A stretch of 64,000 nucleotides of DNA, from contig CASDPB010000047.1 in the NCBI GenBank assembly GCA_949282305.1, positions 155,514-219,513 of the forward strand, read 5' to 3'. A model generated the notes under the pieces. The model searched no databases, had not been told where the DNA came from, and saw only the letters and a list, made by a program, of their open reading frames with translations. Positions 17,035 through 45,604 of the stretch are shown here, one piece after another (within the stretch, counting starts at the first letter, position 1; the number at the start of each line of letters is the position of its first letter). The DNA is from an uncultured Lentisphaeria bacterium (GTDB lineage: Bacteria > Verrucomicrobiota > Lentisphaeria > Victivallales > UBA1829). The translations under genes were made by a program, and so were the position numbers.

Positions 17035-18974
17035 ACCATATCCATTTCTTTTTTTATCTGGAGTTTTTCTTTGAATTTGACAATACTGTCAGCCAGGCGG
17101 GCAGAATCTCCGCGCGGACAGAAAATAATTTCCTCCGGATTCGCCTTAAAGAGCTCATGATTTGCCGGTGTATCTCCTAGAATGACAGGTTTCTTCATAG
17201 CTCTGTAAATATATGCTTTTCCCGGAATAGTGCGTGCAGCTTTCCTTATTTCCGCATTGAAATGTCCGGCAAGACAGAGGTCTGCACGTGAAATCTCAAA
17301 GGCAAGTTCCCGTTGACTTAGATAATCAAAAATAACAGCATTTGCAGAGGCAAGCCGTTTCTTCTGCATCTCCTTCAAAGGTCCAATAAGGATAAAACGA
17401 ATATCTGTTCTCTTTTTCAGAAGCAATATCGCATCAATAATCACTTCCACACCTTGAAGGGGTAAAATTGAGCCGAAATAAAGAACATTCAGTATTTTTC
17501 CGTCATAATCATATTTCGGATAAAGTGCCGGATCATAATAGGTTCTGTCAGCCTCAAGATACAGAACTTTAATCTTATTCTTGTCCGCCTTGAGAAATTT
17601 GATAAAATAACGACTGTGCGCCCTGGTATCGCAAATTATCTCATCGGCAAGGCGCAACGTGAGAACATCCAGACGATAAAGCAGATGTGCCGCCGGAGAT
17701 CTCCTCCGAAATATCTTGCGATCAGAAATAAAGGTATCATAAAGTGAAATGAAGAAGTCAATCGTAATCTTTTTGTGTCTAAACTTCCAATACCAGAAAG
17801 GCAGCACAAGCTGTGGTGAAAAACCACAGAAGAAATGATCAATTTTTCCCGCGGAAGTAAATAATAAATGCCAGTAGACATAAATCAGCCTCGCAAAATA
17901 ACTTCTGCCTGAACTTGCAATCCGGCTTACCCGCCGTCCACTGCTGTTCAATAATTTTATCTCCTGGGTATTGCGCAGATAATCACGATTTTTAGTGGAC
18001 ACAAAAAGAACTCTTTCGGATGAAGCATCTTGCCCCGGTGAACAATCGGTTTTGAATAAAATCTGTGTCATTCGCAATATCTTGATTCCAATAAAGGCAA
18101 ATACCTCACCGACAATCGTCCAGCATCTCGCTGCAACAAGCAATACGATCAACTGTGCCGCTTCCAGTGCTCCTGTTCCGAAAAACTGCAATACATATTC
18201 TCTTACTCCCAGCCCATTCGGTGTCGGACTTAAGAACCCAGCCACCCAGGCAACCGGATAGGCGACCCCAAGACGCGCCGCCGCCCCGAAGCTGGTATCT
18301 CCTATCGAAATGCAAAGCACTGCAAGCCCCATGCCGACACTGAACCACATTAAGATATATCCGACAAACAAGCCATAGACCGCAGTATTGCTCAACGAAT
18401 ATTCTGACTGGGATTTAAAAAGCCGGCAGAGCAACTTAAATCCCAGTCGGATAAAAAAAGGCAGAAATGCAAACGCTGAAATGCCGCAAGCAAAAACCGC
18501 AACTCCAGCAATGGCTGAATTCTTGAAAATGAACGGCAGAAAAAACAGCAGAAAGAAAAGTGATGACATAATCTGAAATAGATATTCAACGCAAATCGCT
18601 CCGGATGTCCGGCAGGGAGATGCTCCGCGCTTTATGCACCATACAGCCTTGCCGACAATATTCCAGATACCACCGGGAATGTAACGGGCAAATGCACTGG
18701 TAATGAAAATATCAATATAATCCAGCTTACTGATGTTTTCTTTTCTGTCATACTGTATATACATCCACAAGTATGCCATAAAAATAAAAGAAACACCATA
18801 CATCAGCGAGGCAGCAAGAAACAGAGCAATTCTGATATTCTTTACTGATTGCGACAGTTCCTGATATGAACCGGAAAAATTCCGATACACAAAATAAAAC
18901 ATGACAATGGCAAGAAACAACCCCAAAAGACGTAAAACTGTCTTTAACGGAAACTTGGATTCTTTGCGAATCAT
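17031..18974 (-). CDS. fusion protein: flippase-like TM domain (LPG_synthase_TM/UPF0104 type) + C-terminal GT4-type glycosyltransferase
   Basis: 647 aa. The N-terminal ~300 aa are polytopic, with FARYIPGGIWNIVGKA and SPTPNGLGVREY motifs seen in the MprF-like flippase-type domain. The C-terminal half has a GT1/GT4-like pattern (YFGSILPLQGVEVIIDA...IPGKAYIYRAMKKPVILGD). ATGA overlaps at both ends. Confidence 0.65.
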   Translation of the reverse strand: MIRKESKFPLKTVLRLLGLFLAIVMFYFVYRNFSGSYQELSQSVKNIRIALFLAASLMYGVSFIFMAYLWMYIQYDRKENISKLDYIDIFITSAFARYIPGGIWNIVGKAVWCIKRGASPCRTSGAICVEYLFQIMSSLFFLLFFLPFIFKNSAIAGVAVFACGISAFAFLPFFIRLGFKLLCRLFKSQSEYSLSNTAVYGLFVGYILMWFSVGMGLAVLCISIGDTSFGAAARLGVAYPVAWVAGFLSPTPNGLGVREYVLQFFGTGALEAAQLIVLLVAARCWTIVGEVFAFIGIKILRMTQILFKTDCSPGQDASSERVLFVSTKNRDYLRNTQEIKLLNSSGRRVSRIASSGRSYFARLIYVYWHLLFTSAGKIDHFFCGFSPQLVLPFWYWKFRHKKITIDFFISLYDTFISDRKIFRRRSPAAHLLYRLDVLTLRLADEIICDTRAHSRYFIKFLKADKNKIKVLYLEADRTYYDPALYPKYDYDGKILNVLYFGSILPLQGVEVIIDAILLLKKRTDIRFILIGPLKEMQKKRLASANAVIFDYLSQRELAFEISRADLCLAGHFNAEIRKAARTIPGKAYIYRAMKKPVILGDTPANHELFKANPEEIIFCPRGDSARLADSIVKFKEKLQIKKEMDMV

Positions 18975-19957
18975 TTTTCTTCTCCGTCAAACAGCTTTGC
19001 CCTTCTCATTGTATATTGTATGTCTTCAAGCATCATCCGATTGACAGCAAGCAGGTCGGCGACAAAAGCAATCATCCCGGCAATCACCCCAGTCAGCAGA
19101 AAAAGTGCCGCTAAAAGCAAAGATTGTATTTTTCCACTTCCAGCACCCTGAAAAAAATACCAGAGGAAACGGCAACCAAGAATGGAACCAATGCAGAAAC
19201 AACCAATCCCCAGGGTCATGAAAAAGCGGAACGGATAATAAAGAATCGCAATGCGGATCATGGTGAAAGCGGAACGCTTGATATATTGCGGAATGCTTTT
19301 CACCAGCCGAGATGGACGAAGATCCTCATTGACATGAATCGGCACGCACAGAATTCCAAGATTCTTGTAACCAGCCTGAATGATTGTCTCCAGCGTGTAG
19401 GTATAATTATTGAAGACATTCATCCGCAAGGCAGCCTCCCGGGAAAGAGCCCGGAATCCGCTGGGAGCGTCCTCCACCACCGTGCCGGAAAATTTCCGCA
19501 CCATGAAACTTCCGAATTTCTGAAGCATCTTCTTGAGCGGCGAAAAATGCCGGATCTCCGAAATCGGACGGGTTCCAATCACATACTGCGCCTTTCCGTC
19601 CAGAATCGGCTGTGTCAGCAGGGGAATATCACGCGCATCATATTGATTGTCCGCATCCGTATTGACGATCACATCCGCATCCGCCGACAGAGCCGCATGA
19701 AGCCCGCTCATGAATGCCCGCGCCAGACCGAGATTCGCATGATGCCGGACAATATGCTCCACTCCGCACGCCGCCGCCACCTCCGCCGTATTATCAGTCG
19801 AACCGTCATCAATCACCAGAAATTCCACCTTTTGAAAACCGGGCACTTCACGCGGCAGCTCCCGGATTGCCAGCGCCAGTGTCTCAGCTTCATTATAACA
19901 TGGAATCTGGATCACCAGTTTCCGCTCATGTCGCATAATATATTTTATGTTATTCAT
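18971..19957 (-). CDS. GT2 glycosyltransferase, polyprenyl-phosphate sugar synthase type (DPM1/ArnC/GtrB-like)
   Basis: 328 aa from ATG 19957 (GGGAG SD; ORF open to 20041). Motifs QIPCYNEAETL, VIDDGSTDNT and NTDADNQY, plus C-terminal TM helices. Confidence 0.85.
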   Translation of the reverse strand: MNNIKYIMRHERKLVIQIPCYNEAETLALAIRELPREVPGFQKVEFLVIDDGSTDNTAEVAAACGVEHIVRHHANLGLARAFMSGLHAALSADADVIVNTDADNQYDARDIPLLTQPILDGKAQYVIGTRPISEIRHFSPLKKMLQKFGSFMVRKFSGTVVEDAPSGFRALSREAALRMNVFNNYTYTLETIIQAGYKNLGILCVPIHVNEDLRPSRLVKSIPQYIKRSAFTMIRIAILYYPFRFFMTLGIGCFCIGSILGCRFLWYFFQGAGSGKIQSLLLAALFLLTGVIAGMIAFVADLLAVNRMMLEDIQYTMRRAKLFDGEEK

Positions 19958-20164
19958 CAAAAACTCCCTGCCGGAATAATAACTTTTAACACCACCTTCA
20001 ACATCAGACAAACCCAGGTATTTCCACTCAAAATACACCACATAAAATATATTATGCGAACTTAAATTCAGCCTCAGCCGACACTTGGAAACAGCCTGCA
20101 GTTAATAAAAATATTACAGAAAATAATTTTTTCAAGCAACGAGCAGTTTTTTATAAAAAGATAT

Positions 20165-28759: not shown

Positions 28760-29770
28760 ATGAATGTGAATGAAACACATCAGGAAATCAGCTTGAAGGA
28801 GCTTGCGGCGCATTGCGGGCTCTCCTCCGCGACGGTATCCGACATCATCAACGGGAAAGCACGCCGGAAACGGATCTCCGTCAAAACGGAAACACGTGTC
28901 CTTGACGCCGCAAAACGTCTCGGCTACCGCCCGAACCGTCTGGCGGCATGTTTCCGCCGCGGACAGAATCCGGCAATCGGAGTCTTTCTGCCGGATCAGG
29001 CTTATGCGCCCGTAGCCGCACTTTCCATGGGAATCTCCGACGCCGCGCTGAAAGACAACATTCCGCTGAATTTCTATTACGGGCTCCAGGACAGCGATTA
29101 TGCGTCCTTTCTGGATCTTGTCAGCATCAACGGCAACTGCGGCATCATCTCCTATATGCCGAGTTTCGCCGCATTTGAAGACAAGATCAGGCGGTTTACG
29201 GAACGCGGCGGAACCGTTGTCATGCTGAACTCGCCGTCTATGGAAAACCTGCATGTGAAATATCTCTCTCTGCGCAATTACGACGCGGGGGTCATTGCCG
29301 CACACGGACTGCTCAAAAGCGGATGCGAAGAATTTCATGCGTTCTGCGGGCATGACATTCAGGGCGGACAGCGGGAGGCCGGTTTCCGGGACTGTCTGCT
29401 GGAAAAGAAAATCCTGCCGCACCTGCATGACGGCAACGGGTGGAAAGAGGCGGATCTGAAAACAATCATCCGGAAAGCCGCCGGTAAAACCGTCGGCATT
29501 TTCGCATGGACCGATTTTGTCGCGCTGGAAATGTTCCGTTGTTTCCGGGCTCTCGGCGCCTCTGAGAAAATCGGGAAAAGCATCAGGATCATCGGATGCG
29601 ACAATTCACCGTTCTGTCATTCGATGGATCCGCCCCTGAGTTCGGTCGATCTTGCATTCCGCGAGCTCGGTTTCACGGCAATGAAATATCTGCTGGAGTG
29701 CATGGATACGCCGGACGCACCCCCGCCCCCGCTTCCGGAACCGCGTCTGGAACAGCGGGAAAGTTCTTGA
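28760..29770 (+). CDS. LacI-family transcriptional regulator
   Basis: 336 aa. N-terminal HTH ISLKELAAHCGLSSATVSDIINGK and a periplasmic-binding-fold effector domain. Confidence 0.85.
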   Translation: MNVNETHQEISLKELAAHCGLSSATVSDIINGKARRKRISVKTETRVLDAAKRLGYRPNRLAACFRRGQNPAIGVFLPDQAYAPVAALSMGISDAALKDNIPLNFYYGLQDSDYASFLDLVSINGNCGIISYMPSFAAFEDKIRRFTERGGTVVMLNSPSMENLHVKYLSLRNYDAGVIAAHGLLKSGCEEFHAFCGHDIQGGQREAGFRDCLLEKKILPHLHDGNGWKEADLKTIIRKAAGKTVGIFAWTDFVALEMFRCFRALGASEKIGKSIRIIGCDNSPFCHSMDPPLSSVDLAFRELGFTAMKYLLECMDTPDAPPPPLPEPRLEQRESS

Positions 29771-29818: not shown

Positions 29819-30652
29819 ATGAAAAAACTCGGATTCATCGATCTCTTTATCGACGAATGGCACGCAAACAATTATCCGGCATGGATCAAGGAAGCGAAAC
29901 GCGGAACGGAATTTGAACTTGCCTATGCCTGGGAAAAAGCTCCGCGCAACGGGCGTCCGCTTGAAAAATGGTGCGAAGATTTCAGTGTAACGCCGCTCGG
30001 AAGCATTGAGGAAGTCGTAGAAAAATCGGATGCGGTTTTCGTGCTTGCGCCGTCCAATCCGGAAGTTCACCGCGAACTGGCTGAAATTCCCCTGAAGAGC
30101 GGTAAGCCGGTCTTTGTGGACAAACCGTTCGCTCCGTCAAAAGCCGATGCGGAGGCAATGTTTGAACTTGCGGCAAAGCACAACACCCCGCTGATGTCAA
30201 GTTCCGCCCTCCGTTTCTCCACCGAACTGAACGCCTATCGTAATCAGCCCGGCACGACTTATATCGAAACAACCGGTGGAGGAAGTTCCTTCTGGGAATA
30301 TTCGATTCACCAGGTGGAAATGATCGTTTCCGTGCTCGGGACAGGCGCAAAACGCATCATGCAGTGCGGCGCGAACGGCGTGGAACACATGGTCATACAA
30401 TACGGAGACGACCGCAGGGCATCCCTGACTTATACTTCCAATGCCCCGTTCACGGTCAATCTGGTTCACGAGGGAAAAATGATTGTCAACCCCCAGTGCT
30501 CCGATTTCTTCCCGGTTCTTCTTTCGGAGATTCTGGACTTCTTCGCAACAGGAAAATCTCCGATTGATGCCGCTCAGACGATTGAAATCGCAGCACTTGT
30601 CGCCGCCGGAATCAAAGCTCTCGAAGCAAAAGACGTCTGGCACAATCTCTGA
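29819..30652 (+). CDS. Gfo/Idh/MocA-like protein (atypical N-terminus lacking a clear GxGxxG)
   Basis: 277 aa. KKLGFIDLFIDEWHANNYPAWI start and ...PVFVDKPFAPSKADAEAMFELA, resembling the EKP/DKP block of this family. AAGGAGG SD. Confidence 0.55.
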   Translation: MKKLGFIDLFIDEWHANNYPAWIKEAKRGTEFELAYAWEKAPRNGRPLEKWCEDFSVTPLGSIEEVVEKSDAVFVLAPSNPEVHRELAEIPLKSGKPVFVDKPFAPSKADAEAMFELAAKHNTPLMSSSALRFSTELNAYRNQPGTTYIETTGGGSSFWEYSIHQVEMIVSVLGTGAKRIMQCGANGVEHMVIQYGDDRRASLTYTSNAPFTVNLVHEGKMIVNPQCSDFFPVLLSEILDFFATGKSPIDAAQTIEIAALVAAGIKALEAKDVWHNL

Positions 30653-30668
30653 TCCGACAAGATCAGGC

Positions 30669-30716
30669 AAAAAAAATGCGAGGCTTGCAGACAACTGGCA
30701 GACCTCGCATTTTTTA
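30669..30716. terminator. bidirectional rho-independent terminator between convergent genes
   Basis: Stem aatgcgagg/cctcgcatt (30675-30683 / 30703-30711), flanked by an A-run on the left and a T-run on the right. Confidence 0.7.
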
Positions 30717-30730
30717 TATGCGCAAAAAGG

Positions 30731-32134
30731 TTATTTTTTCCTGGCACTTCCGGCTTTTTTCACAGGCGCGGCAGCTTTGGCTTTGACTGCTACTTTCTTC
30801 GCAGGTGCGGCGACTTTAGCGGTCGCAGTTTTCTTCGCGGGCTCCGCTTTGACTGCTACTTTCTTCGCAGGTGCGGCAGCTTTGGCGGTCGCAGTTTTCT
30901 TCGCGGGCTCCGCTTTGACTGCTACTTTCTTCGCAGGTGCGGCGACTTTAGCGGTCGCAGTTTTCTTCGCAGGTGCGGCAGCTTTGACTGCTACTTTCTT
31001 CGCAGGTGCGGCAGCTTTGGCGGTCGCAGTTTTCTTCGCGGGCTCAGCTTTGACTGCTACTTTCTTCGCGGGTGCGGCGGCTTTGGCTTTGACAGGAGCG
31101 GCTTTCCTGACTGCGCCGGCTTTGACGGATGTTTTGGAATTTGTTTTACGCATCCTCGGCTCCACCGCTTTCTGTTCCTTGTTGGACTCTATGATTGCCA
31201 TGCACAACGCAAGAGCCTCGCGTCCGACTTTCCAGTTTTCATTGCCGCCCTTTGCAATTGACGAGGCAAATACAGCATGAGAATTCGGAATCGCCTTCAG
31301 CGATGCAAACTTGATCACTTTCGGTTTTTTCTGTCCTTTCTTATGAATTTCAATGCTGTCATCGGTCAGCAGAATGGCGCCATTCTGTCCGTAAATTTCA
31401 AACTTGTTCCCGCCGATCGGGAAAGTCCAGCTCAGTTCCAGCGTTGCCGTCGCGCCGTTCTTATAACGGAACAGGGCAACCACATTGTCCGGCACCTCAT
31501 GCGTCAGATTCGTCGTCTGCGACATGACAGTGTCGACGGGTCCGAAGTACCATTGAAGCAGGTCGGCCATGTGAACCGCAATGTCCGTCACGAGACTGCC
31601 TTTGTATTTCTTCTGGACAAACCATGTCGCTCCCGGAGACCAGCCGACATCCGGGCTGGATGTGGCGGCACGCAGACAACGGGCATGGAGCGGCTTGCCG
31701 ATCTCGCCCGCCGCCACAAGTTCCGCGATTTTTTTGTACAGCGTATGGAAACGAAGCGACTGATTGACCTGAAGAATCAGGCCGTTTTTCTCTGCAAGAT
31801 CAATCATTTCATCCGCTTCCTCCACGCTGGAAGCCATCGGTTTTTCAACAAGGACATGCTTGCCGGCGTTCAGACACTGGAGAGTCTGTTCGTAATGATA
31901 CAGGTTCGGCGTCGCAATGATGACCGCGTCGACATCGGATTTCAGGAGTTCATCCAGGGATCTGCAGAACTTCGGTTTCACTTTATGCTTCCCTGCCAGA
32001 GCTTCCGCTTTGCCTTTTTTGATGTCGAACATCGCCGTCACTTCTGCATTTTTGCCGAGAGAAAGCATTTCCGGCATGTGATTGGCATCCGCGATTTTTC
32101 CGCACCCGACCAGACCGACTTTCAGTACACCCAT
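30731..32134 (-). CDS. Gfo/Idh/MocA-family oxidoreductase fused to a C-terminal Lys/Ala/Pro-rich histone-H1-like repeat tail
   Basis: 467 aa from ATG 32134 (AAGGAGG SD 6 nt upstream; the track start 32158 is TTG). Rossmann motif VGLVGCGKIADANHMP and VLVEKPMA block. The last ~135 aa are AAPAKKVAVKA / EPAKKTATAKA repeats. Confidence 0.85.
   Translation of the reverse strand: MGVLKVGLVGCGKIADANHMPEMLSLGKNAEVTAMFDIKKGKAEALAGKHKVKPKFCRSLDELLKSDVDAVIIATPNLYHYEQTLQCLNAGKHVLVEKPMASSVEEADEMIDLAEKNGLILQVNQSLRFHTLYKKIAELVAAGEIGKPLHARCLRAATSSPDVGWSPGATWFVQKKYKGSLVTDIAVHMADLLQWYFGPVDTVMSQTTNLTHEVPDNVVALFRYKNGATATLELSWTFPIGGNKFEIYGQNGAILLTDDSIEIHKKGQKKPKVIKFASLKAIPNSHAVFASSIAKGGNENWKVGREALALCMAIIESNKEQKAVEPRMRKTNSKTSVKAGAVRKAAPVKAKAAAPAKKVAVKAEPAKKTATAKAAAPAKKVAVKAAAPAKKTATAKVAAPAKKVAVKAEPAKKTATAKAAAPAKKVAVKAEPAKKTATAKVAAPAKKVAVKAKAAAPVKKAGSARKK
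30770..31115. repeat. in-frame tandem repeat, about 5 units of 66 bp (each two 33-bp half-units), encoding the basic tail
   Basis: The marker ctttgactgc recurs at 30781, 30847, 30913, 30982 and 31048 (periods 66, 66, 69, 66). Units are nearly identical. Confidence 0.9.
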
Positions 32135-32245
32135 TTCTCCTCCTTGCTTTTTTGCCAACTTGATATTTTCCTGTGGAACTTATGGAAGTTAACACATAAA
32201 ATATGAAATTTCAATATCACCGCAACAATTAAATGCAAATAATTT

Positions 32246-36680: not shown

Positions 36681-38468
36681 CTATTCCGCTTTCCTGTTTT
36701 CCAAAGGCAGCTGGATATAAAAATCGCTGCCCTTTCCGGGTTCGCTGACAAGACCCGGTTTGCCGCCGTGAAGCAATGCCACATGTTTCACGATCGCCAG
36801 TCCAAGTCCCGTCCCCCCGAGTTTACGGCTCCTCGCCTTATCCACACGGTAGAAACGCTCGAACACCCGTTCCTGATGCTCCTTTGCGATCCCGATTCCA
36901 TGGTCAAGCACATCAATGCGGAACAGATTGCTGCCGCTTCGCTTCATCGTAACTTTGACGTCGGAACCCTCATTGCTGTATTTGATCGCATTGTCGATCA
37001 GATTGATGACCGCCTGTTCCAGGAGCTGGGCGTCGGCGCGGATCATCACATTATCCACGACATCAAGATTCAGCTTGATGTTTTTCGCCTCGGCGCGCGG
37101 ACGGCAAAGTTCCACGGCTTCGCGCACGGCTCCCTCCACCGAAATTTCCGGCATTTCCTCGGTGGAGCTCAAACGCTTGTGCTCCAGATTGGAAAGGCTC
37201 AGAATGTCCTGAACCAGCGCATTCAGCCGCGTGGCCTGCTGGGTGATAATCTTCATGAAACGACTCTGCGCCTCTTTGTCATCTCCGACGTTCTCCAGAG
37301 TTTCGACAGCGGCAATGATTGAGGTCAGCGGCGTCTTGATCTCATGCGTGACATCGGCGATGAAATCACGACGGAACTCCTCCAGTTTGCGGATCACGGT
37401 AATGTCCGTAATGACGAGAAGCACGCCGGGCTTGCGTTTTTCACCGAGATTCAAACGGCCGGCGCGAGCGATGAAACTGCGTTCGCCGTCCGGCATGTTG
37501 AGTGTCAGCTCCGACTCAAAAACACCGTCGGAATTCTTCGCGTCCTCAGCCAGTTTGATTAATTCGCGACTGCCTACAATCGCCGCAAAGGAAAGCCGGT
37601 TTCCATCGGAGGAGAAGTTGAACATCGCCTCCGCTGCCTTGTTCCAGCGCTTGATGATCCCGTTGCCTTTCACGAGGATCACTCCCTCCGTCATGCTGGA
37701 CAAAATCGCATCGCGCTCATTTTTTTCACGTGTGATCTTCGCCAGTTTCGCTTTGAGCTCCTCGCTCATGGAGTTCAGGGCAATCGCAAGGCTCCGTATC
37801 TCCCCGTTGTTCGGGACAGGCAGGCTCACGTCAAAATCACCTTGCGCGACCCGGTCCGCGGCACGGCGCAGTTCCTCCAGAGGATGCGTGATCAGCCGGA
37901 ACAGATAAAAAGCAAGTCCCGCGGCAACCAGAGCGCCGATGATCCCGGCGAGAAGAATCGTGCGGAACGCCTGTTTCAGAAGGACGCCGAGCCGTGCGGC
38001 TCCGACCGCCGTCCGGATGCAATAGGTCTTTCCATTCACCACGACCGGCATGGCATAGTAGGACATATAAGTTCCGAGCGTGCTGCTGTACCGGGTTGCT
38101 CCCGCGGCTTTCCCCTCCAGCGCGGAGGCGACTTCAGGGCGTTCCAGATGGTTTTCCATGAAATGGGGATCATTTTTCGAATCGGCAAGAATTTTACCCT
38201 TGTCATCAATCACAGTAACGCGGGTGTCCATTTTTTCCGAGATTTTTCTGCAGTATGCGCGCAGTTTGTCGAGATCCCCTTTTCCGATATATTCCGCAAC
38301 GGTGTCGCTCATCAGGAAATCACGCGCGGCGAGATTGTTGCGAACCGTCTCAAAATAACCGTCCTCCAGATTCGCTGCCTGCTTGTAAACGGCGAACAGC
38401 AGAAGCACAATCGCCAGCAGAAGAATCAGAGGAAGATAAATGAAGAGTTTGAAGTTGAACGTTTTCAT
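36681..38468 (-). CDS. phoR: phosphate-regulon sensor histidine kinase
   Basis: 595 aa. Two TM helices flank a periplasmic domain, then HAMP and PAS-like regions. H-box FIADVTHEIKTPLTS and G2 box GGTGLGLAIVKH. Sits directly downstream of phoB. Confidence 0.8.
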   Translation of the reverse strand: MKTFNFKLFIYLPLILLLAIVLLLFAVYKQAANLEDGYFETVRNNLAARDFLMSDTVAEYIGKGDLDKLRAYCRKISEKMDTRVTVIDDKGKILADSKNDPHFMENHLERPEVASALEGKAAGATRYSSTLGTYMSYYAMPVVVNGKTYCIRTAVGAARLGVLLKQAFRTILLAGIIGALVAAGLAFYLFRLITHPLEELRRAADRVAQGDFDVSLPVPNNGEIRSLAIALNSMSEELKAKLAKITREKNERDAILSSMTEGVILVKGNGIIKRWNKAAEAMFNFSSDGNRLSFAAIVGSRELIKLAEDAKNSDGVFESELTLNMPDGERSFIARAGRLNLGEKRKPGVLLVITDITVIRKLEEFRRDFIADVTHEIKTPLTSIIAAVETLENVGDDKEAQSRFMKIITQQATRLNALVQDILSLSNLEHKRLSSTEEMPEISVEGAVREAVELCRPRAEAKNIKLNLDVVDNVMIRADAQLLEQAVINLIDNAIKYSNEGSDVKVTMKRSGSNLFRIDVLDHGIGIAKEHQERVFERFYRVDKARSRKLGGTGLGLAIVKHVALLHGGKPGLVSEPGKGSDFYIQLPLENRKAE

Positions 38469-38471
38469 GTT

Positions 38472-39179
38472 TTACGGCTCCTGAGAGAAACGGTATCCGA
38501 TTCCGCGGACAGTTTCGATCAATTCTCCATATTCCCCCATTTTGCGGCGGAGTCCGACAATCTGCACGTCGATGGCGCGTTCCGTCACGGGATAATCGTC
38601 GCCGCGGATCGCGTTCACGATCTGATTGCGGGTAAACACCCAGCCGGGGCGTTTCGCCAGATGATAAAGGATATTGAATTCGGAACAGGTAAGGTCAAGT
38701 TCCTGCCCGTTCAACATCGCGGAACGGCGCGCCGCATTCATGTGCAGGGGACCGCGGGAAAGCTCCTTTTCATCCTCCGACGTCTCCTCCAGGGCGGCAA
38801 TGCGACGAAGAACCGCGCGGATGCGCGCCGTCAGGATTTTCGGGCTGAACGGTTTCGTGATATAGTCGTCCGCGCCGAGCTCCAGCCCGATCACGACATC
38901 GCTTTCTTCACTTTTCGCGGTCAGCATGATGACCGGAATATTCTTTGTGACAGGATCCGCCTTCAGATTCCTGCAGACCGTCAGCCCGTCCACTCCGGGA
39001 AGCATCAGGTCAAGCAGAATCAGATCCGGCTTGTAAGTGGCCGCGCTTTCCAGTGCGGATTCGCCGTTTTCGCAGCAGACAGGCACCTGATATCCCTCTC
39101 TCTGCAAATTGTACTTGATCAATTCCTGAATGGATTCCTCATCCTCGACGATCATGATTCTTTCTTTGCTCATCGGCAA
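38472..39179 (-). CDS. phoB: phosphate-regulon response regulator (OmpR/PhoB family)
   Basis: 235 aa. Receiver IMIVEDEESI...DLILLDLMLPGVDG, winged-helix C-terminus IETVRGIGYRF. Confidence 0.9.
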   Translation of the reverse strand: MPMSKERIMIVEDEESIQELIKYNLQREGYQVPVCCENGESALESAATYKPDLILLDLMLPGVDGLTVCRNLKADPVTKNIPVIMLTAKSEESDVVIGLELGADDYITKPFSPKILTARIRAVLRRIAALEETSEDEKELSRGPLHMNAARRSAMLNGQELDLTCSEFNILYHLAKRPGWVFTRNQIVNAIRGDDYPVTERAIDVQIVGLRRKMGEYGELIETVRGIGYRFSQEP

Positions 39180-39230
39180 AACCTTTCAAGGTTAAAAACA
39201 AGTCAAAATGTTTCTCTGTAAAATAATGCG

Positions 39231-39938
39231 TCAAAGTTCTTTTTCAACTACGGAAGAATGTTCTCCGCCGCCGGAAAAGCGGGAATAGGCATGACGCACG
39301 ATGCGCCCCGACTCCAGATAGATCACATCCTCGGCGATGTTCGTGGTGCAGTCCGCAATCCGTTCCAGACTCCGCGAAACGCCGAGCAGCGCCTGATAGG
39401 CGGCGACATGTTCCGGATCAGTCCGGACACGTTCGGGAAAATGTTCCGAATAACGTTCATGCAGCTCGTCAATCACATCATCCCCCATGATGACCTCCGT
39501 GGCGAGCGGGACATTGTGGCTGGAAAGCGCCTTGATCGAAGAATCCAGCATCCTGCGCACGGAAGCGGTCATGGCTTCAAAATCGACCGGAAGCGGCGGC
39601 ACGACGGAATCAGGCTTCGACTCCGTTGTAAACTCCGCAATGTCCACGGCAAGATCGCCGATGCGTTCCAGCTCGCCATTGACCTTCAGAACAGTGATAA
39701 TGTAACGGAGATCCCCCGCGACGGGCTGATAAAGGGCAAGCAGCTTGAGGCACTCTTCCTCGATCATGATTTCATTCCGGTCGATGTCTTCGTCTTTTTC
39801 AACGGTTTTCGCGGCAGCCTGCACATTGCCGTTCAAGAACGCCTTGACCACATTTCCCAGCATTTCGGCAACATCCACAGCCTGAGAGTAAAGTTTCTGG
39901 TCCAGAGCGCGAATCTCTTTGTAAAGATGTGTTTTCAT
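39231..39938 (-). CDS. phoU: phosphate signalling modulator PhoU
   Basis: 235 aa. Duplicated PhoU repeats, each containing an ERI(G/A)D motif. Confidence 0.9.
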   Translation of the reverse strand: MKTHLYKEIRALDQKLYSQAVDVAEMLGNVVKAFLNGNVQAAAKTVEKDEDIDRNEIMIEEECLKLLALYQPVAGDLRYIITVLKVNGELERIGDLAVDIAEFTTESKPDSVVPPLPVDFEAMTASVRRMLDSSIKALSSHNVPLATEVIMGDDVIDELHERYSEHFPERVRTDPEHVAAYQALLGVSRSLERIADCTTNIAEDVIYLESGRIVRHAYSRFSGGGEHSSVVEKEL

Positions 39939-39958
39939 TTCCGTATTTCTCCTTTGTA

Positions 39959-40738
39959 TCAGCCGAAACGTCCGGTGATGTATTCTTCCGTTTTCTTATT
40001 GGATGGATTGGTAAAAATCTTCGCCGTCGTGTCATGTTCTATGATGCGCCCTTTGTAGAAAAAGGCGGTGTAGTCCGAAATTCGCGATGCCTGCTGCATG
40101 TTGTGCGTGACGATCACGATGGTGAACCTCTGGCGCAGTTTCAGGAGCAGTTCCTCGATTTTCAGCGTGGCGACGGGGTCGATTGCGGAGGTCGGTTCGT
40201 CGAGCAGAAGAATATCCGGCTCGGCGGCAATCGTACGCGCAATGCAGAGACGCTGCTGCTGTCCTCCGGAAAGTGCCAGTCCGCTGCCGTTGAGTTTGTC
40301 CTTGACTTCATCCCAGAGGGATGCGCCGCGCAGAGCCGTTTCCACCCGTTCGGCGATCTCGCTTTTTCTGAGCTTGAAGTGAAGCCGCATTCCGTAGGCA
40401 ACATTGTCGAACACGGACATCGGGAACGGGGTCGGACGCTGGAAGATCATACCGACTTTGCGCCGCAGTTCCAGCACATCGACATTGCGGTCAAGAATGT
40501 TCTGTCCGTCGATGACGACCTCGCCTTCGACGCGCTGTTCGCGGTAAAGTTCAAAGATGCGGTTGTAAATTCTCAGATGAGTGGATTTTCCGCATCCGGA
40601 GGGCCCGATCACAGCGGTGATGCGGTTTTCCGGGATTTCCAGATTGTTGTCAAACAGCGACTGGTGGTCTCCGTAAAAGAAATTGAGGTTCTTCGCGGCG
40701 ATTTTGATTTTCGGTTTTTCTTCGTTTTGAATGGTCAT
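39959..40738 (-). CDS. pstB: phosphate ABC transporter ATP-binding protein
   Basis: 259 aa from ATG 40738 (ORF open to 40780). [10 protein letters not shown], Walker [23 protein letters not shown]. Confidence 0.95.
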
Positions 40739-40739
40739 G

Positions 40740-41612
40740 TCAAGCATTTTTCTTCTCCCTGCAGATGTAACGGAGGACAATGTTCATCAGCAGCAATGTT
40801 ATCGTAATCAGGAATGCGGCGCCCCATCCCATCGCGTGCATCTCTTCGCTCGGAGAGTTGGTGGCGTATTCGTTGATGAGGACAGGCAGATTCGCGGTCG
40901 GCTGTGTGAAATAATGCCACGGCCAGGCATCGCTCCAAAGCGCCGTAAACAGAAGGGGAGCAGTCTCCCCGGCGGTTCGGGCGACGGCAAGCAGGATGCT
41001 CGTCACGAGCCCGCCTTTGATGGACCGGCAGACAATGCACAGAACGGAACGTGCGCGCGTCATGCCCAGAGCGAGGGAAGACTCATGAACAGCCGCAGGC
41101 ACCATCAGGATCATATCCTCCGTCGTGCGCATGACAACCGGAAACATGATGATCGCAAGGGAGAGCGATCCGGCAAGCCCCGAACGATGCCCGGTCGTGA
41201 CAACCAGCAGCGCATATACAAACACACCTGCGAGAATGGAAGGCAGCCCCATCATCACGTTGACGGAAAACCGGATCAGATTGCCGAGCTTGCTGTTCTG
41301 TCCGTAAATGGCAAGCCCGATTCCCCCGGCAAATGCGGCAGGCACTCCGATCAGAACCGCCATCAAGGTAATGAAAATGGTTCCGAGGATCGCGTTTCCG
41401 ACTCCGTTGTCAGGCTCGCCCGCAGGTTTGCTCCCGCAGAAAATAAAATCCAGACTGATCACCCCCGCGCCGTTTCTGATGACCGACCAGAGAATCCACA
41501 ACATGCAGAAAACCGCAAGCGCGACGCCCGCCACGGAAAGAAGCCACATCACCGAGTTCAGAAGTTTCCGGAAGAACATCGGGCGTCTGGCGACAGTAGT
41601 TGTCTCACTCAT
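40740..41612 (-). CDS. pstA: phosphate ABC transporter permease PstA
   Basis: 290 aa, polytopic. EAA-like loop [16 protein letters not shown] overlap with pstC. Confidence 0.9.
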
Positions 41613-42544
41613 TTTTCACCTCTCTTTCTGTCCATATTCTTCAGGTAAAGCTGCGCGACGGCCTGGACAGAGAGGGACAGCAGCATCAGGATCAGCCCGA
41701 GTGCGAAAAGAACACTGCGGAGAAGACCGTCCGCCTCATTGAAATTGTTTGCAAGAGTCGCGGCAATCGTGGTTCCGCTCCCGAACAGGGAAGTCGGGAG
41801 TTCCGCAATGCCGCCGATCACGAACAGGACCGCCATCGTTTCCCCGAGGGCGCGTCCGAGTCCGATAAACACTGCGCCGAAAATCCCGCGGATGCCATAG
41901 CGCAGAATGATGTGCGAAGCCACCTCCCACGAGGTACAGCCAATCCCGTAGGCGGCTTCCTGAAGCGGAGCGGGAGTCATGCGGAACACATCGCGCATGA
42001 CGGCGCAGATATAAGGAAGAATCATCAGGGCGAGGATGAGTCCGGCGGTCAGGAAGCCGAACCCGTTGTAATCCTCGCCGAAGAATGGAACTTTCCCGAG
42101 GTAAAGCGTATCAGCCAGAAACGGCTGGATGTAATCCTGCATGACGGGAGCCAGGACAAAGAGTCCCCACATACCGTAAATGATGCTGGGAATCGCCGCC
42201 AGCAGATCCAGCGCCTGGCTCAGCGGATACCCGAGCCATTTCGGCGCGTTCACGAGAAACAGCGCCGTGATGAAGCCCAGCGGGGCGGCGATGCCCACCG
42301 CAATCACCGTTGTCACCAGCGTTCCGGTGATCGCGGGAAGCGCCCCGTAAAGCTGCTGGACGGGATCCCACTGCGTTGACAGGATGAATTTGAAACCGAA
42401 TGTCCGGAATGCCTCGACCGAGTTGCCCCCCAGCAGGATAAAGAATCCGGCCGCAACCACCAGCGGGATGAAGGTGCACAGGAGCGTCAGGATCATGAAC
42501 ATCCGGTCCCGGATATTTTCTTTCTTTCCGAACTGATAAAACAT
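41609..42544 (-). CDS. pstC: phosphate ABC transporter permease PstC
   Basis: 311 aa, polytopic. QEAAYGIGCTSWE loop. Position between pstS and pstA. Confidence 0.9.
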   Translation of the reverse strand: MFYQFGKKENIRDRMFMILTLLCTFIPLVVAAGFFILLGGNSVEAFRTFGFKFILSTQWDPVQQLYGALPAITGTLVTTVIAVGIAAPLGFITALFLVNAPKWLGYPLSQALDLLAAIPSIIYGMWGLFVLAPVMQDYIQPFLADTLYLGKVPFFGEDYNGFGFLTAGLILALMILPYICAVMRDVFRMTPAPLQEAAYGIGCTSWEVASHIILRYGIRGIFGAVFIGLGRALGETMAVLFVIGGIAELPTSLFGSGTTIAATLANNFNEADGLLRSVLFALGLILMLLSLSVQAVAQLYLKNMDRKRGEK

Positions 42545-42563
42545 ACCTCAGGATCCGTTTCTC

Positions 42564-43598
42564 TTAAAGTGCGTTTTTCTGCCCGTTGACGGTGATCTCG
42601 TTTTTCCAGTAATCGCCGATCATTTTGACCACATTTTCGGGCATCGGGACATAGTGCATCTTCGCGGCGGAGGCGCGCCCGCTCGTGAAGCACCAGTTGA
42701 AATATTTAAGCATCGCTCTGGCGGCGTCGGCATTTTTCTGGTCGCGATGAATCAGAATGTAGGTGACGCCGACAATCGGCCAGCTGTCCGCGCCGGGCTG
42801 ATCGGTCAGCATCTGGTAAAAGCCCTGATCGGCTTTCCAGTCGGCATGGGCGGCAGCAGCGGAAAACGCTTCGCTGTCCGCCGTGACGAATTTTCCGTCT
42901 TTGTTTTTCAGGGAGGCAACCGGAAGTTTGTATTCCGTTGCAAACGTGTATTCCGTATAGCCGATCGCGCCGCGGCTCTTTCTGACCATATTGCAGACGC
43001 CGGGGTTCTTGCTTCCGCCGATACCCGCGGGCCACTTCACGTCAGAGCCTGCGCCGACCTTGTCCGCCCATTCCTTGGAAATCTTGGCAAGATAATCCGT
43101 AAAGATATAGGTTGTTCCGGAGCTGTCGGTTCTGTGCACAACGGTGATTTTGAGTTTCGGCAGACGGAGCCCCGGATTCAGAGCCGCAATGCGCGGATCG
43201 CTCCAATTCTTGATCTTCCCGAGGAAAATATCGGCAAGAACCGCCTGATCCAGCTTCAGCTGATTCGTTTTGACACCCGGCAGATTGTAAATCAGAACCA
43301 CGCCGCCGCTGAGCATCGGGAACTGAAGAAGCCCGGATTTGTTGAGCTCGTCGATTTTGAGCGGTTTGTCGGTTCCGCCGAAGTTTGCAGTCGCCGACTT
43401 GATCTGATTGATTCCGGCTCCGGAACCGAGAGGCTGATAATTCACGCGAACGTCCTTGTTGACATTGCTGAATCCGTAAGTCCAGACCCGATACACCGGC
43501 GCGGGGAACGACGCCCCGACTCCATTGATCGTGAGGTCTGCGGCGGAGACACTCAGTGCAAGAGCCCCGGCCAGTACAGCGAGAGTTTGTTTCAACAT
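42564..43598 (-). CDS. pstS: periplasmic phosphate-binding protein
   Basis: 344 aa from ATG 43598 (AAGGAG SD; ORF open to 43631). Signal peptide MLKQTLAVLAGALALSVSA. GVGASFPAPVY motif. Confidence 0.9.
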   Translation of the reverse strand: MLKQTLAVLAGALALSVSAADLTINGVGASFPAPVYRVWTYGFSNVNKDVRVNYQPLGSGAGINQIKSATANFGGTDKPLKIDELNKSGLLQFPMLSGGVVLIYNLPGVKTNQLKLDQAVLADIFLGKIKNWSDPRIAALNPGLRLPKLKITVVHRTDSSGTTYIFTDYLAKISKEWADKVGAGSDVKWPAGIGGSKNPGVCNMVRKSRGAIGYTEYTFATEYKLPVASLKNKDGKFVTADSEAFSAAAAHADWKADQGFYQMLTDQPGADSWPIVGVTYILIHRDQKNADAARAMLKYFNWCFTSGRASAAKMHYVPMPENVVKMIGDYWKNEITVNGQKNAL

Positions 43599-43620
43599 AC
43601 CATTTTCTCCTTTTTTCAAT

Positions 43621-43689
43621 TTTCCGGGCATCTCCCGGAAAACCTGTTTTGTTGATTTATTTCAAGCGGGGCAGATTCCGCCGCCCCGC
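43621..43689 (-). other. two stem-loops in the 100-nt secretin-pstS spacer (possible partial terminator / processing or attenuation site)
   Basis: GC stem gcggggc/gccccgc (43666-43672 / 43683-43689) begins 10 nt after the secretin TAA. A second 8-bp stem tttccggg/cccggaaa (43621-43628 / 43634-43641) lies about 20 nt before the pstS SD. Neither has a strong minus-strand U-tract. Confidence 0.4.
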
Positions 43690-43698: not shown

Positions 43699-45585
43699 TT
43701 AATATGTGTCCAAATCCAGTTTCTTTCCGGAATCGAATCCCCATTGTCCATAGCCGTAGGAATTGCTGTTTCCGGCATCTTTGGTCGCATCGCGGATGAC
43801 CTGAATATCGGAATTGATGTTTTCCGGAAGCGCGCTGTCGGGACGGACACTTTCGCATTCCGCCACTACGACCAGCTGCGATTTCTTTGTGGATTCGCTT
43901 TCCGTCGAAAACGCCCAGCCGATCAGCGGAATGTCCTTGAGAATCGGAATACCGCCCTGCCCTCTCACGACATCCAGTTTCTCAATGCCGCCGATCACGA
44001 AACGGTTGTTCCTGTTGCCGATCATGATACGGGTCGTCAGAGGCTCCAGCTGTGACTGCCGCGGCGTGCCGTCGGAAAGATACCCCATCAGCGTATTCGA
44101 TGTGATGGAAACGTCCAGAATCGTGGCATTCGCCGTAATGGAAGGCGTCACATCCATCCTGAACTGATAGCCGTTGGAGATTCCTTCCTCAATCTTGAAT
44201 CCGCTGTCGGAAAGAACATTTTCCTCTTCGCCCCACGTGATTCCCTGCACGCTGTCCGAAACCACGACTTTCTTCCCGTATTCCTGCCCGTTCTTGTAGA
44301 AGCGGGCCCCGTTGTGCGCCGTCAGTGTCACACGGACATCGCCGTTGGCGTCGGTTGTCTTCGCCGCCCCGACCACAGCATTTGCGGGGACGACCGCAAC
44401 CGCCGTTCCGCCCATGTCGATCATGTTCGTAACCGGCGTCACAGTGCCGTTTTCACTGTAGTTGCTGCCGAGCTGCATCTTGAACGCCGGATCAATCTGA
44501 TCGCCCTGTTTGGCATAGACGATTCCGGTGTTCCTCACAAGAGAGCCCTTTTTATTGTTGCGGACGGAAAGTTCTCCGGTGTAGGCGACTTTGCCTTTTC
44601 CCCTGGAGACAAGGAAGTCAAGATAACGGGTATTCCACTTCGGATTGAAATTGAAATACTGGGAATTGTTGGAACCGGCGCCGCGCTGAAGTCCGCCGCC
44701 GAAAGCCGCAGACCAGTTGTCGCGGTATCTCGCGCCCGTGCTGAAGAAATCCGCGCCGTCATTGTTCTTCCATGCCTGGAAGTCGGCGCCGAGGCGTCCG
44801 TCGTTTTCCGCGTAAATTTCATAAATCATATATTTCACGCGGACTTCCGGATGCGGGATGTCGTAAAGTTTCAGCATGTCCTCGATATTCTTGCGGGAGT
44901 AGAGAGCGGTGCTGAAGAAGAGACAGTTCAGTCCGCCGTCCACGGCGACTTTGTCCTTGCCGCCGATCAGTTCCACCGTGTCGTCGGAAACGTTTGCACC
45001 GACATTTTTGATCATCGTCTCAAGTTCACTCGCCGGACGGTTCGCGGGGAAATAGATGAATTTCGGCTGACCGGACGAGTTTCTGATGCCGGGCTTGTCC
45101 AGATGGGCAACGATGGAATCAATCCCCATGCCGTTCGGACTGTCTTTGAAACGGTATTCCTCGGCGGAGATGATGACCGCCCCGGTGCCGTCGGCAAACT
45201 TGACGCACTCAACTCCGGAGGGAATCGCAATATCGTTCTTGGTGCGATAGATGTTGTAATAGTTGTGCGGCTGGTTCGGATCTTCCCCGTCCTTGTAGTT
45301 TACGCGCAGCGCCTGGACCATTTCACGCAGATACGGGCGAATCTCATAGGCGTCGGCGTGCTTCAGGAGATAAGTTTTCGTAATGATTTTCGGATCGTTG
45401 GTATCGCGGATGAAATGAACCATTTCGGTGCCTTCCCTGATGTTCAGGCGGAGCTGAGCCTGCACCATGGACGGAGAATACGCGGGATTTGCATTGCCGG
45501 TCGGCATTTCATTGGCAAGAAGTGTCGAACCGCAGAGTGCGAGAAATGCCGTGACAGCCGATCTTTTCATATTTTTTCTTTTCAT
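43699..45585 (-). CDS. secretin-family outer-membrane protein (paralog B)
   Basis: 628 aa. Signal peptide MKRKNMKRSAVTAFLALCGSTLLA. N-domain-like KTYLLKHADAYEIRPYL. C-terminal secretin signature GGIPILKDIPLIGWAFSTESESTKKSQLVVVAECE. Confidence 0.8.
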   Translation of the reverse strand: MKRKNMKRSAVTAFLALCGSTLLANEMPTGNANPAYSPSMVQAQLRLNIREGTEMVHFIRDTNDPKIITKTYLLKHADAYEIRPYLREMVQALRVNYKDGEDPNQPHNYYNIYRTKNDIAIPSGVECVKFADGTGAVIISAEEYRFKDSPNGMGIDSIVAHLDKPGIRNSSGQPKFIYFPANRPASELETMIKNVGANVSDDTVELIGGKDKVAVDGGLNCLFFSTALYSRKNIEDMLKLYDIPHPEVRVKYMIYEIYAENDGRLGADFQAWKNNDGADFFSTGARYRDNWSAAFGGGLQRGAGSNNSQYFNFNPKWNTRYLDFLVSRGKGKVAYTGELSVRNNKKGSLVRNTGIVYAKQGDQIDPAFKMQLGSNYSENGTVTPVTNMIDMGGTAVAVVPANAVVGAAKTTDANGDVRVTLTAHNGARFYKNGQEYGKKVVVSDSVQGITWGEEENVLSDSGFKIEEGISNGYQFRMDVTPSITANATILDVSITSNTLMGYLSDGTPRQSQLEPLTTRIMIGNRNNRFVIGGIEKLDVVRGQGGIPILKDIPLIGWAFSTESESTKKSQLVVVAECESVRPDSALPENINSDIQVIRDATKDAGNSNSYGYGQWGFDSGKKLDLDTY

Positions 45586-45604
45586 AATCGCTCAATCTCC
45601 TCTG

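Follow-up and report, generated by a model that had tools for sequence, protein, structure and literature searches.

Lysine-, alanine- and proline-rich histone-like tails are increasingly seen as modules by which bacteria in general bind DNA, RNA and polyphosphate condensates, as in AlgP, PhaF, Hlp and Ku, and have so far been known on proteins that are associated with nucleic acids or organise granules. In Pseudomonas, the KPAA C-terminal domain of AlgP binds DNA and is required for the spacing of polyphosphate granules (PMC9239181), and the disordered KPAA region of PhaF binds RNA through its lysines (PMC12818456). In these proteins, a functional N-terminal domain joined to a polyanion-binding tail tethers PHA granules, in the case of PhaF, or organises polyphosphate granules, in the case of AlgP (PMC9239181, PMC12818456). 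Lysine-rich tails are cut to pieces by trypsin, as noted for AlgP (PMC9239181). The PAKKA tails represent a further class, defined by composition and not by homology. They are fast-evolving, have been proposed to have arisen repeatedly on unrelated proteins, and touch DNA in Hlp and Ku (PMC3553676). More generally, lysine-rich low-complexity regions are over-represented in DNA- and RNA-binding proteins (PMC6821194).

Here, we describe a tail of this type in a gut-type Lentisphaeria (Victivallales) bacterium, within a stretch of 64,000 nucleotides (hereafter, the window), where it directly continues what looks like a normal sugar dehydrogenase. The literature searched contains no account of such a fusion, nor of histone-like tails in Lentisphaerae.

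The enzyme core and its polycationic extension

The features of the gene are collected in Table 1. The ORF spans 30731..32158 on the reverse strand, with the true start at the ATG at 32134, a position supported by the orthologues, which begin with the same MGVLKVGL; the strong Shine-Dalgarno sequence and start codon named in the initial annotation stand.

Table 1. Window coordinates of the dehydrogenase gene, its signals and the parts of its product
Feature	Positions	Strand	Details
Bidirectional intrinsic terminator	30667..30721	.	A-tract / GC hairpin / U-tract; common to the convergent gene 29819-30652 (+)
Complete CDS, Gfo/Idh/MocA oxidoreductase with polycationic tail	30731..32134	-	467 aa; TAA stop 30731-30733
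Disordered polycationic tail, aa 333-467	30734..31138	-	A/K/V/P/T; net charge +36; pI 11.2
Tandem DNA repeat array coding for the tail	30780..31087	-	4.6 copies of 66 bp or 2.3 copies of 135 bp; exact repeats at most 59-65 bp long
Gfo/Idh/MocA C-terminal alpha/beta (substrate/dimerisation) domain, aa 133-254	31373..31738	-	PF22725 E 7.4e-28; PF02894 E 5.7e-15; D184...H188
NAD(P)-binding Rossmann domain, aa 4-124	31763..32125	-	PF01408 E 4.6e-32; GCGKIA glycine loop; E97-K98-P99; pLDDT >90
Shine-Dalgarno AAGGAGG	32139..32145	-	Read from the sequence; 4 nt 5' of the ATG at 32134

Residues 1-332 make up a complete oxidoreductase of the Gfo/Idh/MocA family, the identity already given to them initially. 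PF01408 scores 111.7 bits against a Pfam cut-off of 24, PF22725 97.5 against 27, and PF02894 56.1 against 22.9; in the alignment, the glycine loop (G10-C-G12-K-I-A) is invariant across orthologues, as are E97, K98, P99, D184 and H188 (12 orthologues). The EKP motif and the Asp/His catalytic pair are the defining marks of this family. The AlphaFold (AF2) model of the core is confident and matches chain A of 2glx with a Foldseek TM-score of 0.85, the structural matches comprising 1,5-anhydro-D-fructose reductase, levoglucosan dehydrogenase, glucuronide-3-dehydrogenase and WlbA. Among the NCBIfam equivalogs, the enzyme falls under every cut-off, including those of the myo-inositol 2-dehydrogenase IolG (TIGR04380; 125.8 bits, 355 required) and UDP-GlcNAc 3-dehydrogenase (NF040723; 119 bits, 450 required). 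Throughout the orthologue group the catalytic core is basic, with a mean pI of 8.0-8.7 versus 6.75 in the wider family; core-domain charge was considered as a correlate of tail presence and rejected, with no difference between tailed and tail-less proteins.

From this core, the reading frame runs stop-free into a tail of 135 residues, in agreement with the initial annotation as to the uninterrupted frame, the length of about 135 aa, the composition and the repeated units, and the interval that it gave (30731-31150) correctly takes in the stop codon together with the region coding for the tail. Alanine (38.5%), lysine (27.4%), valine (11.9%), proline (8.1%) and threonine (6.7%) make up most of the tail, which contains nine PAKK motifs within units such as EPAKKTATAKA and AAPAKKVAVKA. 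Every 11-mer has a proline, and the whole tail is modelled as coil, at a pLDDT of about 35. An amphipathic, lipid-binding tail of helical 11-mers or 22-mers, like those of apolipoproteins or synuclein, was considered and ruled out by the prolines, the varying period and the coil model. At the DNA level, Tandem Repeats Finder describes the array by either of two periods, 66 bp (91% matches, score 519) or 135 bp (95% matches, score 548), and the first of them bears out the early count of about five 66-bp repeats. This repetitiveness is far beyond chance.

The tail was also searched by itself, as had been advised: the full protein returned the Pfam domains of Table 1 and no match to HC2 (PF07382) at E<=0.01, and the tail no Pfam family at E<=10. 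A homology search with the tail alone gave no matches at the default threshold because of the composition-bias correction, and weak compositional matches only at E<=10 (HU, SWIB, DksA, L21 and S1).

The hairpin and U8 tract that follow the stop codon have a dG of -26.7 kcal/mol (z -4.79), with none of 200 shuffles as good. Genes similar to lolD/lolE lie upstream in the window and at the P0006 loci and are missing at other orthologue loci, and in two clades of orthologues a gene for AP_endonuc_2, a sugar isomerase-like TIM barrel, is found downstream, an arrangement known from keto-sugar pathways. A conserved neighbourhood was sought as a functional clue and set aside: lolDE precedes the gene in two lineages, AP_endonuc_2 follows it in two others, and neighbourhoods are not conserved, so that no operon-based function is proposed. 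The Pho regulon (phoR/phoB/phoU/pstSCAB) lies 5-12 kb from the gene. As support for polyphosphate binding, this proximity is treated as a coincidence, because the 6-kb flanks of orthologue loci from lineages other than that of the window did not show the block.

Reality and variation of the tail

A repeat block that is an assembly artefact, out of frame or untranslated, with a real gene antisense to it or a protein that ends before the tail, can hardly be credited, and this reading has already been largely refuted. It would draw on the copy number, which differs between two assemblies (467 vs 423 aa), and on an antisense ORF of 265 aa (30483-31280, +). However, the window protein is identical to the public protein P0121, recorded in both NCBI and ENA as encoded on a 239-kb contig; the sole difference between the second assembly and the window is a clean deletion of 132 bp (two units), both versions being in frame; and the array is resolvable, since no exact repeat in it exceeds 65 bp and the other assembly used a k of 87. 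In-frame tails are also found in dozens of orthologues. The antisense ORF, which reads FFAGAAALAV..., is without a match in Pfam and overlaps both the terminator and the 3' end of the convergent gene; it was rejected as implausible. Neither an assembly artefact nor a frame error accounts for the tail.

The copy-number variation between strains that had been predicted is seen in these two assemblies and again inside 90% clusters, where tail length ranges from 61 to 250 aa and 31 of the 34 length variants stay in frame to the terminal KKK. A form of 487 aa recurs, identical, on >160 contigs. K/A/P tails with differing repeat units and the same composition are also present in orthologues at 50-93% identity, where they measure about 20-250 aa and close with KKK in almost every case; PAKKA units number seven in P0004, four in P0020 and none in the window tail, which has PAKKV and PAKKT instead. 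At least six subclades of one Lentisphaeria orthologue group include long tails, interleaved with basic stubs of 14-16 aa, and the different repeat periods in this group (22, 17, 33, 5/15, 13 and 14 aa) suggest that a short basic stub (PKNRRKK) was expanded several times independently. A long tail is missing from many close orthologues, the nearest sister P0007 among them, which makes the enzyme fold independent of it and, together with the wide length range in 90% clusters, the requirement for it loose. Two further Victivallales loci at 48-49% identity are both tail-less, among the matches listed in a contig pattern scan, and neither the window nor roughly 130 kb from related genomes contained any other K/A/P segment. 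The tail is real, in frame, kept across diverged orthologues, strain-variable in length and limited to one orthologue group.

Such a tail might be a tolerated, nearly neutral by-product of slippage at a Lys/Ala-coding stub, growing and shrinking without any specific binding role, a possible but somewhat unlikely explanation. It would account for the near-identity of the 66/132-bp DNA repeats, the strong length polymorphism and the common, interleaved tail-less orthologues, and it agrees with the four synonymous versus four non-synonymous codon differences between repeat units, too few for a selection signal to be measurable within the array. It fits poorly with the older, diverged tails, such as that of P0002, where repeat identity is lost at the DNA level but the A/K/P/V composition and the terminal KKK are kept and acidic or aromatic residues are almost absent. 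The in-frame state of nearly all length variants, even though a C-terminal frameshift would be harmless to the enzyme, also speaks against it, as does the recurrence of expansions in this dehydrogenase gene only and not in its neighbours. With its shared composition, terminal KKK, in-frame variants and recurrent 487-aa form, the tail would appear to be under constraint.

Candidate roles of the tail

Taking AlgP, PhaF and Hlp as analogues, we propose, at about even confidence, that this cytoplasmic enzyme would use its slippage-grown tail as a non-specific electrostatic tether to polyanions. The enzyme, of the Gfo/Idh/MocA family, would act in the cytoplasm as an NAD(P)-dependent dehydrogenase or reductase of sugars or glycosides, and its C-terminus would have been lengthened, by slippage at short DNA repeats that keep the frame, to a long disordered polycationic Lys/Ala/Pro/Val tail. 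This tail would hold chromosomal DNA, RNA or ribosomes, or polyphosphate granules without sequence specificity, so that the enzyme would be concentrated or sequestered on the surface of the nucleoid or of granules, and the repeat number would set the strength of binding. The more demanding proposition, that one Victivallales sugar-oxidising enzyme has gained H1-like tails independently at least six times, selected for placement at the nucleoid, RNA or polyphosphate, we hold to be unlikely.

Tethering is consistent with the proteins on which comparable tails are found. The ORF survey was seeded with AKKAAPAKKA, a motif not present exactly in the window tail, and carrier domains were named from 25 of 32 Pfam families; the carriers, among the matches listed, comprise DksA/TraR, SWIB, HC2, HU, sigma-70, TopA, Ku, ribosomal-protein, DEAD and H-NS, with one OmpA-domain carrier as the sole exception to nucleic-acid association. 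No metabolic enzyme carried a comparable tail among the matches listed in three sampled surveys, nor did any of 146 other Gfo/Idh/MocA representatives. The carriers, among the matches listed, would point this tail class to polyanion binding, and because such tails stand there, the OmpA-domain carrier apart, only on nucleic-acid-associated proteins, the fusion with an enzyme is indeed unusual, as first supposed.

A tail that anchors the protein to anionic membrane lipids or catches anionic carbohydrates (with sulfated or uronic oligosaccharides and nucleotide sugars as candidate substrates), in place of binding nucleic acid or polyphosphate, is distinctly unlikely. A published title refers to the repeats of mycobacterial HBHA, which are Lys-rich and of the KKAAPA type, as heparin-binding (PMC10665949), the basic orthologue cores are compatible with anionic ligands, and lolD/lolE-like genes stand upstream in the window and at the P0006 loci. 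Against these, the protein has no signal peptide and no hydrophobic or amphipathic element, the unconserved repeat period and the coil model leave no membrane-binding helix, the lolDE adjacency is missing elsewhere, and the tail class tracks nucleic-acid-associated proteins, with the OmpA-domain exception, among the matches listed. The anionic envelope polymer that the initial annotation had offered as one possible partner is disfavoured too, since the Rossmann strand from residue 4 leaves no room for a signal peptide.

The tail could finally be a physicochemical accessory with no defined partner, that is, an entropic bristle, a solubility tag or a guard against tail-specific proteolysis, which we regard as highly unlikely. 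Its predicted full disorder, its flexible length and the conservation of the terminal KKK rather than of any specific motif would suit such a role, which nevertheless leaves unexplained the constant strong cationic charge, the restriction to one enzyme family and the lengths of 100-250 aa.

If the more demanding proposition of six or more selected gains is true, no bacterial metabolic enzyme before this one would have been found to be targeted by a disordered H1-like tail. The protein would then moonlight, binding NAD(H) in association with the nucleoid or with granules, or would carry out a metabolic step that is organised in space, and the repeat number would serve as a strain-level tuning knob. 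A catalytic dehydrogenase with repeatedly evolved tails of this kind would show that bacteria also position ordinary metabolic enzymes with them. The tail-less, 20-, 100- and 250-aa versions, some of them differing by repeat number alone, constitute a natural series for relating length to affinity, localisation and condensate partitioning. Were the tail inert, the locus would still provide clean in-frame minisatellite variation in a MAG-only lineage, as well as a warning, given that the public annotation 'Gfo/Idh/MocA family oxidoreductase' conceals the tail.

Comparison with described enzymes and tail systems

Residues 1-332 share their two-domain fold (TM 0.73-0.88) and the EKP and D..H motifs with 1,5-anhydro-D-fructose reductase, levoglucosan dehydrogenase, the glucuronide/glycoside 3-dehydrogenases, DgpA and WlbA, at only 22-27% identity. 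Contrary to the window protein, none of the solved relatives has a basic tail.

With the eukaryotic H1 C-terminal domain and chlamydial Hc2 (PF07382), the window tail has in common its K/A/P composition, disorder and polycationic charge; there is, however, no PF07382 match at E<=10 and no globular winged-helix domain. The initial likening to H1, Hc1/Hc2 and AlgP thus holds for composition and fails for homology, the likeness being, as judged from these profiles and the zero count of KPAA, compositional.

AlgP and PhaF come closer in architecture, with a long, cationic, Lys/Ala/Pro-rich C-terminal repeat tail, predicted to be disordered, on an unrelated N-terminal domain, and with a repeat number that varies between species and strains, as in the window gene. 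Their repeats are of the KPAA type (KPVA/KTAAA), whereas the Val/Thr-rich window tail is built of units of 11/22 aa on PAKK(V/T); their N-terminal partner is a helical regulator or phasin instead of a catalytic oxidoreductase, and the Lentisphaeria tail comes from another lineage with no detectable sequence homology. By sequence, it does not belong to the AlgP, PhaF or Hlp families. Whereas the described PAKKA carriers are DNA-binding folds and the window carrier is a metabolic enzyme fold without known nucleic-acid activity, the window tail resembles those of Hlp/HupB (actinobacterial/Deinococcus HU) and the Ku of M. smegmatis in its PAKK-centred, low-complexity Lys/Ala/Pro repeats, with PAKKA units proper in the orthologues P0004 and P0020.

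Gene, tail and surroundings

The gene is a single unbroken reading frame (Table), whose 467-residue product carries in the same frame, from about residue 333, a tail of 135 residues (A 38.5%, K 27.4%, V 11.9%, P 8.1%, T 6.7%) with a net charge of +36, a pI of 11.2 and nine PAKK motifs. The tail-coding array is described by Tandem Repeats Finder either as 4.6 copies of 66 bp (91% matches) or as 2.3 copies of 135 bp (95%), and it encodes EPAKKTATAKA units alternating with AAPAKKVAVKA. The reading frame, the in-frame tail, the unit sequences, the 66-bp array and their positions are all as the initial annotation had described them. Past the TAA stop lies an A-tract/GC-hairpin/U8 structure (dG -26.7 kcal/mol, z -4.8), which is a bidirectional terminator common to the tailed gene and its convergent neighbour. 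An antisense frame (30483-31280, +) was rejected, as it reads FFAGAAALAV..., lacks a Pfam match, and crosses both this terminator and the 3' end of the neighbouring gene.

Features of the window (Gfo, Gfo/Idh/MocA; domain positions in residues of the tailed protein)
Feature	Position	Strand	Remarks
Tailed reading frame	30731-32158	-	
Start codon ATG	32134	-	4 nt past AAGGAGG; all orthologues share MGVLKVGL start
Shine-Dalgarno AAGGAGG	32139-32145	-	4 nt before ATG
Tail-coding tandem array	30780-31087	-	Tandem Repeats Finder
Gfo NAD-binding Rossmann domain	aa 4-124	-	Pfam E 4.6e-32
Gfo C-terminal domain	aa 133-254	-	PF22725 E 7.4e-28; PF02894 E 5.7e-15
277-aa protein gene	29819-30652	+	convergent, directly downstream of tailed gene; N-terminal Gfo domain only, E 1e-11
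LacI-family regulator gene	28760-29770	+	precedes 277-aa protein gene
Phosphate-starvation block, complete	36681-43631	-	phoR-like kinase, phoB-like regulator, phoU, pstB, pstA, pstC, pstS; 5-12 kb from tailed gene
Two adjoining secretin-domain genes	43699-47149	-	628 and 514 aa; weak Secretin matches; directly upstream of pst operon
Envelope-glycosylation cluster	15466-20041	-	PMT_2-type glycosyltransferase; 647-aa fusion (lysyl-phosphatidylglycerol-synthase-like TM region and GT1 domain); GT2
Large ORF, 1010 aa	5709-8741	+	no Pfam match at E<=1e-5
Large ORF, 630 aa	26784-28676	+	no Pfam match at E<=1e-5; also called, again without Pfam match, in independent assembly L001
Large ORF, 472 aa	13885-15303	+	no Pfam match at E<=1e-5
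Large ORF, 342 aa	4485-5513	-	no Pfam match at E<=1e-5

Since the start of the 277-aa neighbour (MKKLGFIDLFIDEWHANNY) is without the GxGxxG loop, this protein is a degenerate paralogue that probably does not bind NAD. Its gene and that of the LacI-family regulator occur as a pair in the window and in L001, a second assembly of this locus, and not beside the other orthologues. The phosphate-starvation block was not seen within the 6-kb flanks of the more distant orthologue loci, and a polyphosphate link through its proximity was therefore set aside as coincidence.

The catalytic part (residues 1-332) is a member of the Gfo/Idh/MocA family and shows every defining feature tested. The glycine loop (G10/C11/G12), the EKP motif (E97/K98/P99), D184 and H188 are invariant in an alignment of 12 orthologues, and AlphaFold2 models this core with a pLDDT mostly of 85-98 and the tail as unstructured coil (about 35). 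Its nearest solved relatives are 1,5-anhydro-D-fructose reductase (2glx, target-normalised TM 0.85), levoglucosan dehydrogenase, glucuronide-3-dehydrogenase, DgpA and WlbA. Because identity to these is only 22-27% and the score lies far below every NCBIfam equivalog cut-off (e.g., 125.8 against 355 bits for IolG), the protein is predicted to be a sugar or glycoside dehydrogenase/reductase without an assignable substrate. Strand beta-1 begins at residue 4, which leaves no space for a signal peptide, and the protein should be cytoplasmic.

Variation and evolution of the tail

An identical 467-aa protein (P0121), encoded on a 239-kb contig, is already public in both NCBI and ENA. L001, from an ENA metagenome, is 100% identical to the window over 7.2 kb upstream and 99.87% over 6.2 kb downstream, the sole difference within the gene being a clean in-frame deletion of 132 bp (two 66-bp units) that results in a 423-aa protein. 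Exact repeats in the array reach at most 59-65 bp, below the k=87 of this other assembly, so that short reads can resolve it; strain variation is a more likely source of the two lengths than repeat collapse. Lentisphaeria/Victivallales MAG orthologues at 50-93% identity have tails rich in K/A/P, which are about 20 to 250 residues long and nearly all end in KKK. Different lengths coexist inside 90%-identity clusters (e.g., 106/108/115/123/125/250, 107/152/169/186 and 61-93 aa), with the frame kept through the terminal KKK in 31 of 34 length variants, and one 487-aa form is identical on more than 160 contigs. The two forms of this locus and the many lengths per cluster bear out the copy-number variation between strains that had been predicted. 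Several independent lines thus agree that the tail is real, in frame and translated; given the identical public protein, the in-frame L001 form and the in-frame variants, a repeat block that is an artefact or out of frame is hardly credible.

Three members of the P0003 cluster (P0144, P0146 and P0147) end, after a partial tail, in non-K/A/P sequence (e.g., ...AKRRLVSGFGAMRASSVTSSSRT); a frameshift in the allele or a misassembly of the array may account for them. In P0218, a 221-aa ORF (50 members), a PAKKAAPAKV repeat follows an N-terminus that looks like nonsense, and the ORF is possibly a mis-called fragment of a gene of this type.

A neighbour-joining tree built on the catalytic cores, crude and without support values, puts long tails (at least 35 aa) in at least six separate subclades within one clade, interleaved with orthologues ending in a basic stub of 14-16 residues (…P-K-N-R-R-K-K); relatives below about 50% identity have an earlier, less basic C-terminal end. 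The repeat period differs between subclades (22 aa in the window protein, 17 in P0004 and P0002, 33 in P0145, 5/15 in P0020, 13 in P0034, and 14-15 in P0043 and P0178), which argues for repeated independent expansions, and not for one ancestral tail lost many times. In older tails, such as that of P0002, the DNA-level repeat identity is gone and the A/K/P/V composition is kept, acidic and aromatic residues being nearly absent, a pattern that selection on composition would produce. P0007, the closest sister to the clade of the window protein (70% identity), is tail-less, and the enzyme fold therefore does not need the tail.

Carriers of Lys/Ala/Pro tails

A metagenome scan for DNA encoding AKKAAPAKKA returned at least 122 ORFs, mostly small and dominated by low complexity; among the matches listed, 76 of the 122 had 50 or more residues beyond the low-complexity region. 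The commonest Pfam domains of these 76 were the DksA/TraR zinc finger (at least 19), SWIB (at least 16), HC2 (at least 14), HU (at least 9) and sigma-70 (at least 3), with single cases, among the matches listed, of topoisomerase I, Ku, ribosomal L17/L21/L22/L29/S20, a DEAD helicase, IF2_N, H-NS, a repressor, an integrase and OmpA. Metabolic enzymes were absent from the matches listed (25 of 32 Pfam families shown). The window tail, used as a protein query, matched nothing at E<=0.001 and, at E<=10, gave weak compositional matches only, on HU, SWIB, DksA, L21, S1-domain and small uncharacterised proteins. Finally, none of 146 further Gfo/Idh/MocA representatives listed (50% clusters; exhaustive phmmer search, catalytic domain as query) had a K/A/P-rich segment.

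These surveys are samples, not censuses, and their results agree: this tail class normally marks nucleic-acid-associated proteins, and its presence on a Gfo/Idh/MocA enzyme is atypical, as the initial annotation had proposed. This fits the published general rule that low-complexity regions rich in Lys are a mark of DNA/RNA-binding proteins and are under-represented in metabolic ones (PMC6821194). Such tails on Gfo/Idh/MocA enzymes appear to be confined to one Lentisphaeria orthologue group. The tailed gene is alone in having a K/A/P segment, both across the 64 kb of the window and across about 130 kb from tail-bearing relatives, where the HU gene adjoining the orthologue P0004 encodes a tail-less 96-aa product. 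Public names are only 'Gfo/Idh/MocA family oxidoreductase' or 'hypothetical protein', and no description of such a tail fused to a dehydrogenase was found in the literature searched. Among the listed matches from environmental metagenomes (loci L087-L206), DksA/TraR and SWIB outnumber HU as tail carriers (19, 16 and 9 of 76), and neither was found mentioned as a carrier in the PAKKA/KPAA literature searched.

Proposed tail function and studied analogues

The likeness to H1, Hc2 and AlgP proposed at the outset holds for composition and not for family membership: by its composition the tail is one of the H1-like Lys/Ala/Pro class, but it has no match to PF07382 (HC2) even at E<=10, contains no KPAA units of the AlgP/PhaF kind, and has only PAKKV/PAKKT variants of the PAKKA motif of Hlp and Ku, which some orthologues carry literally. 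By sequence, it falls in no known family. What is new here is the carrier type of an already known kind of polycationic tail.

By analogy with these proteins the tail probably works as they do, and would act as a non-specific electrostatic tether to polyanions. We give about an even chance to such tethering to DNA, RNA or polyphosphate, without choosing among the three ligands. Frame and composition are conserved in the tail, whose length changes in steps of entire repeat units. We regard as rather unlikely a slippage product tolerated without function, and as distinctly improbable a generic role in solubility or protease protection. Throughout the Lentisphaeria orthologue group (P0001-P0120) the cores are basic, with or without a tail (mean pI 8.0-8.7, against 6.75 in wider family representatives, P0251-P0388), which could stem from a substrate that is anionic or from a proteome bias across the lineage. 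Basic cores are compatible with, and not diagnostic of, a tail binding anionic lipids or anionic glycan substrates, which we consider improbable.

The tether reading is based on experimentally studied analogues. In Hlp and Ku, the PAKKA tails make contact with DNA and form bridges between its ends (PMC3553676), the KPAA domain of AlgP binds DNA and is needed for the spacing of polyphosphate granules (PMC9239181), and the disordered KPAA region of PhaF binds RNA through its lysines (PMC12818456). The significance of the fusion would rise if the tail proved to place a metabolic enzyme on the nucleoid or on polyphosphate granules. The nearest functional model is the layout of PhaF, a functional N-domain followed by a polyanion-binding tail, for which a role in tying PHA granules to DNA has been proposed in P. 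putida (PMC12818456, PMC9239181).
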